Shown in pieces: positions 1 through 8,574 of a stretch of DNA of 8,940 nt (positions within the stretch are counted from its first letter, which is position 1; the number at the start of each line of letters is the position of its first letter). The notes beneath the pieces are model-generated. The model was given only the letters and a program-made list of their open reading frames with translations. It was not told the origin of the DNA and searched no databases. This stretch comes from a virus (taxonomy: Duplodnaviria; Heunggongvirae; Uroviricota; Caudoviricetes). Both the position numbers and the translations under genes were made by a program. The stretch lies in IMG/VR virus record IMGVR_UViG_2700989521_000019. The stretch is one strand, 5' to 3'.

Positions 1-1218
1 ATGAACAAACTGAGCGATACCTTGCTAAGGAAACTTCATGGTAAGCCAGCGGAGAAAAACACGTTTTATAGTGATGGCGGAAACCTGAGCGTGAAATATT
101 TAACATCAGGGAAATTGACCTGGTATTTCACATACAGGGCCGGAACGGGAAGGGAGACACGACCCGAACGCATTAAGCTGGGAAGTTATCCTGATCTGAG
201 CCTGAAATCAGCCAGGGAAAAAGCCGCCCAGTGTCGCGCATGGCTGGCAGAGGGGAAAAATCCACGTCATGAGCTTAATTACACCGTACAGGAAGCGTTA
301 AAGCCGGTAACGGTTGGCGATGCGCTCACCTACTGGCTTGAGTATTACGTAAAGGAAAACCGCGTGGATTATATCGCCCTGAAAAGGCGACTTAATAATC
401 ACGTAATACAGCAGATTGGTGCTATGCCGCTGGATAAATGCGAGCTACGGCACTGGCTGGCCTGTTTTGACCAGGTGGCAAAGCGAACGCCTGTTACTGC
501 CGGATTCGTGCTACAGGCGTGCAAACAGGCGCTTAAGTTCTGCCGTAGGCGGCGCTATGCAATCAGCAACGTTCTGGACGATCTGAACGTGGCGGACGTT
601 GGGAAAAAACCGGATATAAGCGAACGTGTCTTAAGTAACAAAGAACTTGGCGAATTATTGCAGGCACTGGACAAAAAAATATTCTCCCCTTACTACGTCG
701 CGTTAATCCGCCTCCTGATTGTCTTCGGAGCCAGAACGGTAGAACTGAGGTTATCGGAGATCGGGGAGTGGGATTTTACGGAAATGCTATGGACCGTTCC
801 GAAGGAGCACAGCAAAACGAAGGTCGCAATATTCCGGCCCATACCGGAAGCGATCCTGCCGTTCGTCACGCAGCTGGTGGAGCAGAACAGGCACACGGGC
901 TTATTGCTGGGGGAAGTGAAACAGGAGGCCAGCGTATCGCAGTATGGAAGATTAGCGCACAGGAGGCTTAATCATCCTCACTGGTCACTGCATGACATCC
1001 GGCGCACCTTTACAACCATGCTGAACGATTTAGGCGTTGATCCGCATGTCGTGGAGCAGCTTACAGGCCACCAGATGCCAGGAATGCAGCGAGTTTATAA
1101 TCATTCCCGTTATCTGGATGCTAAACGCAATGCGCTGGATATGTGGACGGAGCGGTTAGGGATACTGGCGGGAACACATGAAAACGTAACCACGCTACCA
1201 GTAGCCAGAAGAAAATAA
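1..1218 (+). CDS. int: Tyrosine recombinase / phage integrase, P4-like family (405 aa). Begins at window edge so the true start could lie upstream.
   Basis: N-terminal arm-binding-type region (LSDTLLRKLHGKP...FYSDGGNLSVKY...WYFTYR) typical of P4-family integrases; C-terminal catalytic signature with box I Arg (GARTVELR), HxxR (LHDIRRTF), GHQ and terminal Tyr (RVYNHSRY). Long uninterrupted ORF with the expected int-alpA neighbourhood. Confidence 0.9.
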   Translation: MNKLSDTLLRKLHGKPAEKNTFYSDGGNLSVKYLTSGKLTWYFTYRAGTGRETRPERIKLGSYPDLSLKSAREKAAQCRAWLAEGKNPRHELNYTVQEALKPVTVGDALTYWLEYYVKENRVDYIALKRRLNNHVIQQIGAMPLDKCELRHWLACFDQVAKRTPVTAGFVLQACKQALKFCRRRRYAISNVLDDLNVADVGKKPDISERVLSNKELGELLQALDKKIFSPYYVALIRLLIVFGARTVELRLSEIGEWDFTEMLWTVPKEHSKTKVAIFRPIPEAILPFVTQLVEQNRHTGLLLGEVKQEASVSQYGRLAHRRLNHPHWSLHDIRRTFTTMLNDLGVDPHVVEQLTGHQMPGMQRVYNHSRYLDAKRNALDMWTERLGILAGTHENVTTLPVARRK

Positions 1219-1235
1219 TTTTTTTCGTGTTTTTT

Positions 1236-1251
1236 CAGTATGCGCATACTG
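1236..1251. repeat. Perfect 16-bp palindrome CAGTATGCGCATACTG just downstream of the int stop; candidate protein-binding site
   Basis: Read directly: cagtatgc|gcatactg is its own reverse complement; preceded by a T-rich tract and followed by a partial repeat gtatatgcga. Confidence 0.5.
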
Positions 1252-1260
1252 TATATGCGA

Positions 1261-1310
1261 ACAGATACAACGTGCAACAATGAGCAACAATGTGGAACAA
1301 CCACGAACAA
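1261..1310. repeat. Five tandem 10-bp units each ending in (A)ACAA (acagatacaa cgtgcaacaa tgagcaacaa tgtggaacaa ccacgaacaa); helically phased repeat array
   Basis: Read directly; the 10-bp periodicity places AACAA on one face of the helix, consistent with phased binding sites or intrinsic bending, in the int-alpA intergenic region. Confidence 0.5.
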
Positions 1311-1584
1311 GAGGCGAAAAAGCATACAGATTTATAAGTGGCTGATTTTTAATGTGTCACTGGTTTTTTATACACTAGCGAATCACTCTTTAAAGAGCGA
1401 GAAAAAAGGCATGAAACAATATTTTATGCCTTTGTATTAACATGAATTTAAAATATTTTATTCTTACTGTTTCATTTTCTGTAAATCATACATCCTCAAT
1501 ATTTGCCATTCATCACTCTAGCGGGAACAATACGACACAATAAGACACCTGATGACTCTTTAAGAAACGAAAGGGGGGGCAATA

Positions 1585-1773
1585 GTGTTAAGCACTGATC
1601 GGTTTATACGTGAAAAAGAATGCGAAAAACTAACCGGCCTTAGCCGTACGTGTCGCTACCGCCTGGAAAAGGCCGGACAATTCCCATCACGTCGTAAACT
1701 TGGCGGTCGTTCCGTTGGCTGGTCTTTATCCGAGGTTCTGGCCTGGAAGGATAGCTGCAAGGCAGTTCATTAA
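1585..1773 (+). CDS. alpA: AlpA/Vis-family transcriptional regulator (prophage CP4-57-type regulatory protein / excisionase-like), 62 aa, GTG start
   Basis: Sequence FIREKECEKLTGLSRTCRYRLEKAGQFPSRRKLGGRSVGWSLSEVLAWKDS matches the AlpA-family pattern (LTGLSRxTIYRL...FPxPxKLGxRSVGWxxSEVxxW). Strong SD-like AAGGGGGGG 5 nt upstream of GTG 1585. Position immediately after int is typical. Confidence 0.8.
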   Translation: MLSTDRFIREKECEKLTGLSRTCRYRLEKAGQFPSRRKLGGRSVGWSLSEVLAWKDSCKAVH

Positions 1774-3736: not shown

Positions 3737-4036
3737 ATGAAACTTAAATATTCTGGCTTAACTGCCAGTGGCAACACTCACCCTAAATTTACGCGCGGTG
3801 ATATTTACCGCGACCAGTACGGCGGCACGGTAATGATTAAGGACGTGGAAGAACGGCGCGTAACCTACCGCCGTGAAGGTTACGAATATGATTGCGTGAT
3901 GCCTGTTTATCAGTTCCGGCGTGATTTTTCTCTGGTACAGACCGCGCCGCATAACGTGCCCACCAGCAACGCCAGGGCACGGGCAAACATCCAGAAGCTG
4001 AAAACCATGGTTAACGGATTCAGGGGCAAGAAATGA
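3737..4036 (+). CDS. Hypothetical protein (99 aa)
   Basis: ATG 3737 with GGAGAA SD; the stop overlaps the start of the ATPase gene (ATGA-type overlap at 4033-4036). MKLKYSGLTASGNTHPKFTRGDIYRDQYGG... No recognised family. Confidence 0.55.
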   Translation: MKLKYSGLTASGNTHPKFTRGDIYRDQYGGTVMIKDVEERRVTYRREGYEYDCVMPVYQFRRDFSLVQTAPHNVPTSNARARANIQKLKTMVNGFRGKK

Positions 4037-5433
4037 AAAGCGCACCGAACTTAAAAAAACAGCCTTACGACAAGATGACCGAAGTCATTATTTTTGCGGG
4101 TAGTGATGCCTGGGCACATGCGAAACAGTGGCAGGAACAGGACGGGCGACTGGCTGGCGATAATGTGCCTCCCGTTGTGCTGGCTGATGATCAACTGGAT
4201 GAACTGGCAGACCTGAGAATCATCGACGAGGGGCGCTATTGTGTCCGGCTGTACAAGGCAGGCCACATCAGGCCATCAAATATTAATGCCATTGCGCACA
4301 AGCTGGCGGCGGCGGGTGTAACTGATGCGAATTATTACCCCGAAGGGATGCACAGCCATATGCGGGAGAACTGGCGCGAATACCTGGAACGGGTGCGCGG
4401 GAAAGAGCCGGCGGAAGAAAAAAACCACCAGCGAAAAACCACGCTACCGATGAGCGTTGGATCTACCGGATACGACACGCAACTGGATTACGTGGTTAAG
4501 GGGATTATTCCGGCGGTATCGCTATGCAGCATATACGGGGCTAGCGGGTCCTATAAATCATTCCTTGCCGGATCGTGGGCGTGCCATGTTGCCACTGGTC
4601 GCCAGTGGGGAGGCCGCAGGGTTGCACATGGTGCGGTTCTCTATGTGGTTGGTGAAGGCGGTATAGGTGTTCCGCGTCGTGTAAAAGCCTGGGAGGTTGT
4701 GCACGATGAGCAGGTGAAAAATCTGTATCTGGTAAACCGCCCCATCTTTCCGGCTGCCCCGCTTGATGTTGATGAAATGGTTATCGCTGCCCGTCAGGTG
4801 GAGCGGGAAACGGGTAAACCTGTACGCATGATTATTCTGGATACGCTGGCGCGTTGCTTTGGTGGGAATGATGAAAATGATTCCCGTGATATGGGGGCGT
4901 TTATCCGTGGTTGTGACGAACTGAAACGACGCACAGGGGCCACGGTGCTGGTGGTTCACCATTCCGGCAAGGATGAGACGAAAGGCGCGCGCGGTTCCAG
5001 TGCATTTCGTGCTTCGCTGGATGCTGAATACCGGATACGCAGGGAGGACGCAGGAAGCGAAGCGCTGGTTATCTCATGCACCAAAATGAAGGACGCGGAG
5101 GAACTCAAAGAAGCCGCATATGACTTACGCGTGGTGGAGCTTTTTACCGACGCTGACGGTGAATTAATCACGTCGCTGGTGGTGGTGGATGATCCGCGCC
5201 CTCCTGTTGAACTGGAGCGCATCGAGGAGGCAGGGAACAAGACGGAAAACCATACCGCGCTATGGGGGTGCATCCGTTCACGCACACAGAACGGCGACAA
5301 GTGCACGATCCCGCTGTTACGTGATGACATGAAAAAGCTGGGGTATGAAATGAAAAACTTCCGGCGCTGGCTGTACAAGCTGGAAAAAGATGGGGTTATT
5401 CGTATCGATGGGGATGATGTAGCGCCGCTATAA
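4033..5433 (+). CDS. RecA-fold / AAA-type ATPase, RepA- or DnaB-like replicative helicase-initiator of the element (466 aa); no recognisable primase domain
   Basis: Walker A-like GASGSYKSF (YGASGSYKSFLAGSW), Walker B-like hydrophobic strand plus acidic residue (VRMIILDTLARCFGGNDEND), downstream VLVVHHSGKDETKGARGSSAF resembling DnaB/RepA-type motifs. About 160-aa N-terminal domain of unassigned function. Long ORF with AGGGG SD. Confidence 0.85.
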   Translation: MKSAPNLKKQPYDKMTEVIIFAGSDAWAHAKQWQEQDGRLAGDNVPPVVLADDQLDELADLRIIDEGRYCVRLYKAGHIRPSNINAIAHKLAAAGVTDANYYPEGMHSHMRENWREYLERVRGKEPAEEKNHQRKTTLPMSVGSTGYDTQLDYVVKGIIPAVSLCSIYGASGSYKSFLAGSWACHVATGRQWGGRRVAHGAVLYVVGEGGIGVPRRVKAWEVVHDEQVKNLYLVNRPIFPAAPLDVDEMVIAARQVERETGKPVRMIILDTLARCFGGNDENDSRDMGAFIRGCDELKRRTGATVLVVHHSGKDETKGARGSSAFRASLDAEYRIRREDAGSEALVISCTKMKDAEELKEAAYDLRVVELFTDADGELITSLVVVDDPRPPVELERIEEAGNKTENHTALWGCIRSRTQNGDKCTIPLLRDDMKKLGYEMKNFRRWLYKLEKDGVIRIDGDDVAPL

Positions 5434-5622
5434 AAGTGAGGAGCAAAAGCGAGGGGGATAGAAAGAGGGCCAAAATTAGCCCGCTCTCCCTCACTTTTCG
5501 ACCTGTATACATCCTCAAAAGTGAGGGGTAAAAAAATACTTATGAAACACACACATAGAAAAACCGAAAATCCCAACTGCGACGAAGTGAGACGCTTGAA
5601 AAAGTGAGGCGAAAAAGTGAGA
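5433..5622. repeat. Iteron-like cluster: six copies of core AAGTGAG (consensus AAAGTGAGG) at 5433-5441, 5489-5497 (inverted), 5518-5526, 5585-5593, 5601-5609, 5614-5622, plus degenerate copies (AAAGCGAGG 5446-5454); candidate ori or operator array
   Basis: Read directly in the 200-bp intergenic region between the replicative ATPase gene and the ssb-containing operon. Confidence 0.55.
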
Positions 5623-5633
5623 GGTTGCGAGAA

Positions 5634-6605: not shown

Positions 6606-6701
6606 GCACCAGTTGAAACGGTATGGCGCATTACCGGGTTTTCGTCACGGTCAGGCATAGTTACTATCTGAAACAAACAGACACAACAGAGGAAAAAAAC
6701 A

Positions 6702-6926
6702 ATGCCGATGAAATTTGATGAGATATTAAAACAGCGTGATAAATACCATGCTGACAACATGGAGACGATGAGCATCAATGATTACCGCGCATTCCTGGAG
6801 ACGGGCGCACTGATTGAAAAGGATCAGCATGGTTTTGTGAGATGTGCTCTATCCGGTGAAATGCTGGCGGTAAATCCTGAACAGATAGATGCATTGATAG
6901 AATTTCTGAAAGAGATCAGAGACTGA
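6702..6926 (+). CDS. Hypothetical protein (74 aa)
   Basis: ATG 6702 with GAGGAA SD; MPMKFDEILKQRDKYHADNMETMSINDYRAFLETGALIEKDQHGFVRCALSGEMLAVNPEQIDALIEFLKEIRD; bounded by terminators on both sides. No recognised family. Confidence 0.55.
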   Translation: MPMKFDEILKQRDKYHADNMETMSINDYRAFLETGALIEKDQHGFVRCALSGEMLAVNPEQIDALIEFLKEIRD

Positions 6927-6968: not shown

Positions 6969-7007
6969 GCGCCCAAAAAAAGCCCGGCGAGTCAGATTTC
7001 ATCAATC

Positions 7008-7208
7008 ATGGACAGCCTCCCGCTTACTATGCAAAGGAGCTTCCCACAGATTACCCCCGCCATGCTGGATAGGCTTAAAAGGGAAGTGGTTAAAGCCTGT
7101 AATGCCAGTGCCAGAGTTGCCGACAACCTCCCACAGATACTGGCTGATTACTTGAAAGAAACAACCGGAAACGTACCGGAAAAGTTGCTACAGAAGAAAG
7201 GCGAGTAA
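7008..7208 (+). CDS. Hypothetical protein (66 aa); weak call, start and RBS unclear
   Basis: ORF only; no convincing SD for ATG 7008, 7029 or 7062. MDSLPLTMQRSFPQITPAMLDRLKREVVKACNASARVADNLPQILADYLKETTGNVPEKLLQKKGE. Confidence 0.3.
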   Translation: MDSLPLTMQRSFPQITPAMLDRLKREVVKACNASARVADNLPQILADYLKETTGNVPEKLLQKKGE

Positions 7209-7463
7209 CAGACGCGCAATTATTGAACAAAACTGAGAAACGACATGAAAGCGTCATAAATCGCCATTTTAGATGATTACCGTGTCGTTTCTTTTTATTG
7301 TGTATCTATTTAAAAACAAATAGTTATGTTCGAGAAGTACCGACATGCTTTTTCCAGAAAAATTTTCATAAACAGATAAAAACCGCGAGGTCGCCGCCCC
7401 GTAACGGGCCATAATTCCAGGAAGGACCCGACGACACCAGACTATCAGAGCGATGGGGGCACA

Positions 7464-7745
7464 ATGACAGAAGCCGAACTACTGGGATTAATCCGCCGCG
7501 TTACCGGAATCAGCCAGCAGCATGACGAACAGGCCACGCAGCCGGACAGCGTGACCGCCGAAAATTACGCGCGTGTGGTTGCTGAGGTGATGCGCCGTGA
7601 TGGTATCCAGCTTAATGATGTGGATATGCGCAACATACGGATCCGCGTTCTTGAAATGCTGGCCTACAATCGCCGCGTGGCACTGTATCGGGAAACGGAG
7701 AAAATTACGTACCACTGGAAGAAGCCGGAGCGGTTACGGCGTTAA
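7464..7745 (+). CDS. Hypothetical protein (93 aa)
   Basis: ATG 7464 preceded by a GGGGG run; ORF with balanced composition (MTEAELLGLIRRVTGISQQHDEQATQPDSVTAENYARVVAEVMRRDGIQLNDVDMRNIRIRVLEMLAYNRRVALYRETEKITYHWKKPERLRR). No recognised family. Confidence 0.45.
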   Translation: MTEAELLGLIRRVTGISQQHDEQATQPDSVTAENYARVVAEVMRRDGIQLNDVDMRNIRIRVLEMLAYNRRVALYRETEKITYHWKKPERLRR

Positions 7746-7750
7746 CGAGT

Positions 7751-7800
7751 AGCGACATACCGTGACGGAGAGTGACAACCAGTGACACGCCGTGACAAAA
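7751..7800. repeat. Five tandem 10-bp units carrying core GTGAC/GCGAC (agcgacatac cgtgacggag agtgacaacc agtgacacgc cgtgacaaaa); helically phased repeat array
   Basis: Read directly, immediately after the stop of the 7464-7745 ORF; second 10-bp-phased array in the window (compare 1261-1310). Confidence 0.45.
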
Positions 7801-8574
7801 GACGGTTTAACCGTTAATTAAAAATTGACGGGATTTTGTGCTTTCCGGACGACGTGGCCAACGCCATTTTTTAGCGAAAAGTTCTGATTAAGGTCATTGT
7901 CTGAATGGTCATAATGACCACTCCTACAAAACAGGTAAAGCCCACCAGCCTGATTAACAGTTAACCGGAAAAAAATCCGGTAGCCCCGTTATGGGGATCC
8001 CCATATCAACATTAACGCCCCTCATGAATTAGCGCGCTTCCCCCTGGAAAGATGACCCGCCTGTATATTTCTTGTGTCTATTTGTTCCACGTTGTTTCAT
8101 ACAGTGCACCGAACGGTGTAGTCACTGGTGTAGTCATTTTGCGATTTATGGCACTTTTTGTAGTGAAAACCCCGTTTTTTCTTCCTTTGCTAATAATAAT
8201 GTCTTTTTCGCTCCGTCATCATAACGAAAATCAAACCGCTCAGGTAAAGAAGTGAAAATATTTTGAGTTAATTCTTAAGCTATGATACAAATCAGGCGTG
8301 TTCAACTACCGAGGACAATTATCATCCGCGATGACGAGAAGCAACACTGCGGATAATTGTAATATTATGGACAATTTGTTCAGGACCTTATTTTCAACAT
8401 TTACCCATCTTCGTACCTCATCCACTATCTTGCTCGTAGGTGAGCAGCACTGGCGCAACGCGCTTTAGTCCTTTCTTCTGCCTAAGCTTGCCCTATGCGC
8501 GGGGCTTGACCACTTTACTTTGATTTCGCTGAATTAAGCGAAAATTAAAATAATTCTCTTGCAGGAGAAGGACA

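Follow-up and report, generated by a model that had tools for sequence, protein, structure and literature searches.

The 8,940-nt stretch of viral DNA studied here (IMG/VR record IMGVR_UViG_2700989521_000019, Caudoviricetes; "the window" means this stretch at its full length) is, judged from its sequence, a decayed phage satellite of the phage-inducible chromosomal island (PICI) type. It is 99.7% identical to the island in tqsA of Escherichia coli 042, which was among the PICIs tested by Fillol-Salom et al. 2018, and it belongs to the lineage of the experimentally studied EcCICFT073. Below, L001 denotes the E. coli 042 island and L107 denotes CFT073; the int and alpA products of CFT073 are the same proteins as those of locus L007, and the int-alpA spacers of the two are identical. 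Our subject is the spacer between the integrase gene int and the regulatory gene alpA, in which short direct repeats follow one another at 10-bp intervals. The two genes and the features at the int end of the spacer are:

1..1218, plus strand: int, a P4-like tyrosine integrase gene with an Arm-DNA-bind_3 N-terminal domain (Pfam PF13356, PF00589, PF22022; annotated as tyrosine recombinase in 042)
1219..1235, no strand assigned: T-rich run directly after the int stop codon, nearly invariant in alignments
1236..1251, no strand assigned: perfect 16-bp palindrome CAGTATGCGCATACTG, lineage-specific, one copy per island
1263..1310, plus strand: distal array (cluster 1) of five 8-bp units in 10-bp phase (AGATACAA, TGCAACAA, AGCAACAA, TGGAACAA and ACGAACAA), proposed AlpA binding sites
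1585..1773, plus strand: alpA, 62 amino acids, Phage_AlpA winged helix-turn-helix (Pfam PF05930, E 5e-17)

The alpA product also matched PDB entry 8c3t, 'AlpA family phage regulatory protein' (E 2e-6); a literature search on this entry returned nothing relevant.

The ACAA core begins at positions 1267, 1277, 1287, 1297 and 1307, with a spacing of exactly 10 bp (1267-1310). A first-pass annotation of this DNA had described five phased copies of AACAA. The periodicity held for all five, but only four copies are exact AACAA (1276, 1286, 1296 and 1306), and the first is TACAA at 1266. An AACAG at 1260 is out of phase with the array. The extended unit is the 8-bp TGrAACAA, with the reverse complement TTGTTyCA. 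The array is far beyond chance. Four phased AACAA with at most two mismatches gave three overlapping matches in the window and none in 200 dinucleotide-preserving shuffles, and ACAA-N6-ACAA-N6-ACAA with at most one mismatch gave eight matches against a shuffle mean of 0.12. A coding origin of the pattern was rejected: open reading frames (ORFs) overlap the region on the plus strand (1240-1440) and the minus strand (1110-1325), and 10- and 11-bp indels among the relatives break both. A search for an RNA element in the array region gave no Rfam family at the gathering threshold and two very weak matches at E<10, and the folding of 1219-1330 was unremarkable (z = -1.46).

The repeats were then compared across int-alpA spacers from E. 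coli genomes and viral contigs, which ranged from 67 to 100% identity. Over 29 distinct spacers the ACAA core columns were 99.1% identical to the window, against 73.9% for the columns between cores (permutation p<1e-4), and in a 10-sequence alignment covering the same identity range the cores were invariant. Five to six units were present in 28 of the 29 unique spacers scored, with six in the EcCICFT073-type spacers. Copy number shifted in whole 10-bp units, as seen in L045, which has one extra unit, and in L003, which has lost one unit of a second array nearer alpA. The cores are therefore kept in register while the bases between them drift. This is the pattern implied by the first-pass reading of phased protein-binding sites, and the repeats appear to behave as sequence-specific sites.

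The same unit recurs in four places: the distal array, an array proximal to alpA, and both attachment (att) arms of the island. In the left arm of 042, a four-unit TTGTTyCA array in 10-bp phase lies just upstream of int (L001 5899-5936). The right arm is contained in the window:

8072..8099, minus strand (TTGT... on plus): right att-arm array TGAAACAA, TGGAACAA, AGACACAA in 10-bp phase; also in 042 (L001 16700-16727) and CFT073 (L107 15061-15088)
8115..8137, plus strand: doubled 12-bp motif GGTGTAGTCACTGGTGTAGTCAT (GGTGTAGTCAC twice), proposed integrase arm-type sites

A doubled 12-bp motif (GGTGTAGTCACTGGTGTAGTCAC) follows each arm array within a few bases. The left-arm copy is at L001 5943-5966, and the CFT073 copies are at L107 3885-3908 and 15104-15127. 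By our coordinate estimates the att core, approximately ATAACAGCA, lies about 90 bp beyond the right-arm doubled motif and about 140 bp before the left-arm one, so by position both arrays lie in genuine att arms. EcCICFT073 has the same arm layout around its roxA-phoQ site. In a scan for the unit, two-unit clusters were as frequent in shuffled sequence (mean 3-4) as in the islands scanned, and only arrays of at least three units exceeded the shuffles. On the minus strand, the T-rich run at 1219..1235 could contain two degenerate units, TGAAAAAA and ACGAAAAA; this is only a suggestion, as a two-unit match is at noise level.

Several short direct repeats arranged head to tail, about one helical turn apart, are what would be expected of excision-factor sites, and 1263-1310 has this form. 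Such sites would also be expected in an att arm. The array at 1263-1310 is not there: it stands in the int-alpA spacer, at a distance of about 1.27 kb from the att core; the sister arrays of the TGrAACAA unit do lie in both arms, beside the doubled motif.

The arms hold two kinds of motif, and we examined which of them follows which protein. Integrases of the tqsA-type and roxA-type islands differ at 33 residues, with a concentration in residues 1-45 (14 differences, 31% divergence there). The doubled motif differs between the two types in both arms (GTAGTCAC versus GTAGTTAA, with GGTGTAGTCAC changed to GGTGTAGTTAAT). Their AlpA proteins are 97% identical (L086), and the TTGTT arrays are unchanged. 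The reverse situation was found in islands of other genera, which were retrieved by AlpA alignment. Locus L087 and the loci L103 and L108 have a common class of Int N-terminal domain and a common doubled motif, GTGTATCAC. The recognition helix of AlpA differs between them (CRTTRYIMEK in L087, CRMHRYNLEK in L103/L108), and so do the phased units (GTTyG and GTAyA, respectively). Furthermore, in three motif classes a pair of sites at 10-bp spacing shortly before alpA matches the arm unit of the same island in reverse complement: CGAAC twice in one class, TGTAC/TTTAC in another and GrAACAA in the third. The phased unit thus followed AlpA and not the integrase in two dissociations, which come from few independent lineages, and the AACAA/TTGTT units did not follow the Int N-terminal domain as integrase arm-type motifs would. 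From the two dissociations and the sites upstream of alpA, we take AlpA to be the partner of the phased unit, and the arm-binding domain of the integrase to be that of the doubled motif. This assignment is moderately well supported, though correlative.

The first-pass annotation had offered several protein-binding readings of the array. Sites for a recombination directionality factor and an upstream activating array for alpA appear to fit best, since arrays of the same unit occupy the two att arms and the unit varies together with AlpA. Integrase arm-type sites fit poorly, because a different motif, the doubled GGTGTAGTCAC, tracks the Int N-terminal domain and resembles the lambda arm-type consensus.

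Between the distal array and alpA we noted the following features, in order:

1335..1347, minus strand: IHF-like site TAA-N4-cTGATT, with a single mismatch to YAANNNNTTGATW; 28 bp separate it from the last unit
1403..1435, no strand assigned: hairpin (inverted repeat) AAAAAGGCAT...ATGCCTTT with T-runs on both strands
1457..1485, minus strand: predicted promoter pointing leftward, TTTACA-17-AATAAA, placed back to back with that of alpA
1503..1531, plus strand: predicted alpA promoter TTGCCA-17-AACAAT, from a promoter scan
1523..1553, plus strand: proximal array (cluster 2) GGGAACAA, ACGACACAAT, AAGACACC in 10-bp phase, found by Tandem Repeats Finder (period 10), overlapping the predicted -10 element and the leader
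1556..1575, plus strand: small hairpin CTCTTT-AAGAAACG-AAAGGG over the alpA ribosome-binding site, with a GAAAC unit in its loop; invariant columns

An IHF-like site (YAA-N4-TTGATW) was present in 54 of 55 unique spacers, 28-30 bp after the last unit; in one spacer the distance measured 8 bp. All spacers with an exact match to the IHF consensus were ones without the exact palindrome, and the window itself has no exact match. The predicted promoters were equally well preserved, with TTTACA-16/17-(A/G)ATAAA and TTGCCA-17-(C/A)ACAAT each found in 55 of 55 unique spacers. The proximal array was also conserved in the alignment.

The hairpin at 1403-1435 looks like a bidirectional terminator. One compensatory change, A:T to G:C, was read by eye between the type A spacer and L008/L009; RNAalifold did not recover the hairpin, as an indel misaligned its 3' arm. 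On the minus strand, 1397-1485 contains the leftward promoter-like element followed by a conserved TTTTAAATTCATG, the hairpin and a run of six T. Together, the leftward promoter and the hairpin predict a transcript of about 50 nt running away from alpA, for which Rfam had no match. In other genera (L080, L084 and L087-L104) a GC-rich hairpin followed by a T-run, homologous to the one at 1556-1575, stands immediately before the alpA start and covers the ribosome-binding site (locus positions ~3950-4000). The loop of this hairpin contains two AlpA-type cores (CGAAC in distant islands) exactly 10 bp apart.

Experimental work on the EcCICFT073 island provides the functional background. There, AlpA turns on the promoter of its own gene and is needed for excision and replication (PMC6092414), and EcCIMP1 behaves much like EcCICFT073 (PMC11773190). 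The cloned EcCICFT073 alpA promoter region was activated by AlpA (PMC6092414), and the spacer of that island holds six units. With a probability of roughly 0.55, we read the array as a distal AlpA operator which, together with a conserved IHF-like site, lies upstream of the promoter that AlpA is known to activate. The five head-to-tail sites, one per helical turn, would be bound by the island's own AlpA, which as a small TorI/Xis-type winged-helix protein would serve both as excision factor and as transcription factor. At the arm arrays, beside the integrase arm-type sites, AlpA would bend the DNA for excision. The distal array precedes the predicted alpA start site by about 230-270 bp, with the putative IHF site following the array. 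Once a little AlpA had been made, it might polymerise cooperatively on the distal array. With the AT-rich spacer then bent by IHF, the two arrays, distal and proximal, would jointly switch the alpA promoter fully on. The outcome would be the known positive autoregulation of alpA.

Several points weigh against this interpretation. In EcCICFT073, AlpA left int promoter activity unchanged despite the arm arrays upstream of int (PMC6092414), so AlpA binding upstream of int, if real, had no measured transcriptional effect. The distal array is far from the predicted alpA promoter, and a terminator-like hairpin and a predicted leftward promoter stand between the two; a direct activating role is therefore uncertain. 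In more distant islands an ORF replaces the spacer and the distal array is missing, so this array is not essential to the AlpA system generally. The proximal array is backed by conservation and not by statistics, two-unit matches being at noise level. Finally, few independent lineages underlie the covariation: the dissociations number essentially two, and L108 is closely related to L103; a search for a second independent example of the GTAyA class found only this relative. The hairpin and the divergent promoter leave room for other roles of the distal array, such as setting a titration threshold for AlpA or helping in excision.

Other explanations of the repeats were weighed on the same evidence. 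On one reading, the N-terminal domain of the integrase binds the units as arm-type sites, which would make the distal array an additional Int-binding region that regulates int or alpA. The presence of the unit in both att arms and the arm-binding domain of the integrase agree with this, and the study of helper-embedded PICIs (HE-PICIs) by Mageeney et al. 2023 left open whether Int or AlpA binds the arm motif (PMC10111431). However, the doubled GGTGTAGTCAC is the better candidate for the integrase: it occurs in both arms, about 92 bp upstream and about 143 bp downstream of the core by our own estimate (published HE-PICI values, 81 and 132), it resembles the lambda P' arm sites, and it changes with Int residues 1-45 while the AACAA units do not. 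The unit also changes with AlpA between L103/L108 and L087, which have the same class of Int N-terminal domain. Integrase binding to the array is thus improbable. We also regard as unlikely that the array is a docking site for a Xis/Cox-like protein of a helper phage or other foreign element, which would trigger alpA in place of, or in addition to, the island's own AlpA. In its favour, lambda and phi80 act as helper phages that induce alpA of EcCICFT073 (PMC6092414), and excisionases of co-resident elements cross-complement (PMC11773190). The lambda Xis sites are likewise TGT-containing repeats phased at about 10 bp (ATGTTGTG, ATGTAGTC). A precedent is the activation of P4 PLL by P2 Cox through phased cox boxes. 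Nevertheless, variation in the unit goes along with that in the AlpA and the arm arrays of the same island, which would be unexpected if a foreign protein set the specificity, and beyond TGT it has no sequence match to the lambda Xis sites. A related, similarly doubtful scheme has a helper Xis/Cox-like protein landing on the AlpA-type sites and firing the first alpA transcription, after which AlpA takes over. If true, this would identify the helper-to-PICI induction signal of Gram-negative satellites, in the manner of P2 Cox switching P4.

A third type of explanation dispenses with a dedicated sequence-specific binder. The AT-rich spacer (23-39% GC against 51% in the flanks) and the 10-bp period would suit an intrinsically curved element that nucleates H-NS silencing of alpA, and H-NS silences the alpA promoter of a Shewanella prophage (PMC8034616). 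An A-tract bend would consist of runs of at least four A or T at helical phase and be otherwise unconstrained. What we observed instead was base-specific conservation: the units are AACAA with an invariant C and not A-tracts, G/C-containing positions between the cores vary freely while the cores are fixed, and the identical unit stands in the arms and covaries with AlpA. The bent-DNA element proposed in the first-pass annotation is consequently not needed, as the invariant C in every unit points to base-specific reading and not to A-tract curvature, and the H-NS scheme has little to recommend it. Less likely still is an att arm that was duplicated or inverted and of which the array would be a remnant without function. 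Read backwards, the array does resemble an arm, in that a dyad or doubled element comes after phased repeats, and more distant islands lack it; against this, purifying selection acts on the cores specifically across 29-55 distinct spacers, the distance to the IHF-like site is fixed at 28-30 bp, and unit-wise indels keep the phase. Helically phased short direct repeats are also typical of replication-origin iterons, and here the probability is close to nil. A separate and different set of iterons (AAAGTGAGG, at least five copies, 5432-5625) adjoins repA, and the AACAA unit is common to the att arms and not to the repA region, so origin iterons were rejected. Overall, the array looks functional and is most likely ordinary in kind, representing phased sites for a winged-helix excision factor and regulator at a regulatory position rather than a recombination one.

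The palindrome beside the array was described in the first-pass annotation as a separate dyad-symmetric site. The perfect 16-bp palindrome is present exactly at 1236-1251, with 8-nt halves (CAGTATGC/GCATACTG) that are 100% complementary and have no loop between them. By itself it is not statistically remarkable, because 12.7% of 1000 first-order Markov windows of this size contained at least one perfect palindrome of 16 bp or more, and because the window holds another (TATGGGGATCCCCATA, 7990-8005). The latter is about 65 bp before the right-arm array and is also found in CFT073. The palindrome at 1236-1251 was restricted to one spacer sub-lineage and was absent from type B and C spacers, including that of EcCICFT073. 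In EcCICFT073-type and related spacers the homologous bases are GCGGACAACG or similar, which is one further ACAAC unit, and 11 bp are missing. Column conservation over the palindrome (0.85) was no better than the spacer mean (0.84), and single-base variants broke its symmetry without compensation. An intrinsic terminator was rejected: the T-run precedes the palindrome on the plus strand, the A-run follows on the minus strand, and a terminator scan found nothing there. The description as a separate feature therefore stands, and on this comparison the palindrome is a minor, lineage-specific site. In a weaker variant of the helper scheme, confined to this sub-lineage, it would be the operator of a repressor or inducer.

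Other dyads were seen nearby. A sequence resembling the LexA box (CTGT-N8-ACAG), TACTGTATATGCGAACAGAT, at 1247-1266 overlaps the right half of the palindrome. It scored 9.7 on a home-made LexA index built from 20 sites, worse than every one of those sites (0.3-9.6), and is borderline, at the 5% shuffle level. It was absent from type B and C spacers, and no overlapping promoter was found. A second LexA-box-like sequence, CACTGGTTTTTTATACACTA, at 1358-1377 was present in all spacer types, but it has CAC where CAG is essential and its score was borderline. Two further perfect palindromes of 12 bp lie in the spacer, at 1386-1397 (CTCTTTAAAGAG) and 1449-1460 (TAAAATATTTTA), and the 366-bp int-alpA region holds three of the five longest palindromes in the window. 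In many islands of other genera, paired GTGATATCAC palindromes lie further upstream, and an uncharacterised ORF of 170-340 amino acids is located between int and alpA.

Rightward of alpA, the island carries a DUF4222 gene and genes for a RepA-family helicase, SSB and PerC. At least five iterons of the AAAGTGAGG type directly follow the RepA helicase gene and are likely to mark the replication origin; PICI origins have been reported at that place, next to the RepA helicase gene (PMC6092414). Compared with 042, the window lacks 184 bp containing the right att core and a 5' fragment of tqsA (junction 8166-8170; L001 16798-16981), and the capsid gene module of 042 (L001 12989-15979) is swapped for a short unrelated segment (6987-7352). 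Given these losses, the copy in the window has probably decayed and can no longer move, even though its int and alpA are intact. Two more phased elements were noted in this part of the island. The units TGAAACAA and AGACACAA stand 10 bp apart at 6669-6686, after the PerC terminator and immediately before the ribosome-binding site of the ORF at 6702-6926; this pair was not found in CFT073 and is statistically at noise level. At 7762-7798, GTGAC occurs four times in 10-bp phase (CGTGACGGAG, AGTGACAACC, AGTGACACGC, CGTGACAAAA), following a 93-amino-acid ORF (7464-7745) and about 270 bp before the right-arm array. As its core is unlike AACAA, its binder is probably a different one.

AlpA is the master switch of Gram-negative PICIs. 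Our literature search found no paper that maps AlpA DNA sites in E. coli satellites or explains how helpers activate alpA. As a type of element, phased sites bound by a winged-helix protein with roles in both excision and transcriptional regulation are already well known. What the present analysis yields is a recognition unit, TGrAACAA, and a map of its sites in both att arms and at the distal and promoter-proximal positions, in which likely AlpA sites are separated from likely Int arm sites. The map could help to annotate att sites and regulatory regions of related satellites, and the array fragment offers a defined DNA on which to seek the helper-encoded inducer.

Among known systems, AlpA of Pseudomonas aeruginosa is not a model for the array. 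It is a larger, Q-like antiterminator that acts at a single GGGACG element between -35 and -10. It reads DNA through R128-H142 in a C-terminal helix-turn-helix, whereas the window AlpA has only 62 amino acids, and the likeness is confined to the name and the helix-turn-helix. RdfS and RdfS1271 of the Mesorhizobium symbiosis integrative and conjugative elements (ICEs), and BldC, are winged-helix proteins that form head-to-tail filaments, BldC stacking one protein per DNA turn (PMC11963761). RdfS binds attP beside an Int arm site, and binds promoters at distal (~-170) positions and at positions proximal to the ribosome-binding site or start codon (PMC11963761). The common features are a single small winged-helix protein for excision and transcription, an attP site beside the Int arm, and distal plus proximal promoter sites. 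However, RdfS has no clear motif, while the core is sharply defined in the window island; RdfS also has an extra N-terminal helix, and autoregulation is negative for RdfS but positive for PICI AlpA.

In phage lambda, three phased Xis sites (X1, X1.5 and X2) adjoin an Int arm site. The P' arm sequence TTTGTTGCAACGAACAGGTCACTAT resembles the island arm sequence TTTGTGCAACGATCGGTGTAGTCACT, and an AGTCAC core is common to it and the doubled motif. Unlike the units described here, the Xis sites are confined to a single arm, and no function at a remote promoter is known for them; the N-terminal domain of lambda Int belongs to a Pfam family other than Arm-DNA-bind_3. The HE-PICIs have the same int-alpA module and a tandem doubled 12-bp motif (tgTGTATTGCa), co-oriented in both attP arms at about 81 bp upstream and about 132 bp downstream of the centre, compared with roughly 92 and 143 bp for the window by our estimate. 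Their doubled motif, TGTATTGC, was stated not to be found in other PICIs; in the window the corresponding place is taken by another doubled motif, GGTGTAGTCAC. No phased arrays were reported beside the doubled motif or in the int-alpA spacer (PMC10111431).

A phage excisionase with an AlpA-family annotation has the same sequence as the TorI structure (PMC11773190). TorI has five sites in KplE1 attL with GTTCG, GATCG or GTCCG cores, including one three-site block 2 nt apart that overlaps the int promoter (PMC2951348). The window array differs in forming one uninterrupted run of five to six units, and in its position, which is not in an att arm but between int and alpA, 1.27 kb from the core and in the opposite orientation. 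Moreover, int is repressed by TorI, while Pint of EcCICFT073 did not respond to AlpA. The likeness to TorI in KplE1 and HK620 nevertheless extends to units with a 5-bp core, 2 nt apart and repeated at about 10 bp, in att-arm blocks that overlap the int promoter beside Int arm-type sites. In KplE1, as here, int reads inward from attL, and several relatives of the window island use the same GTTCG core as TorI.

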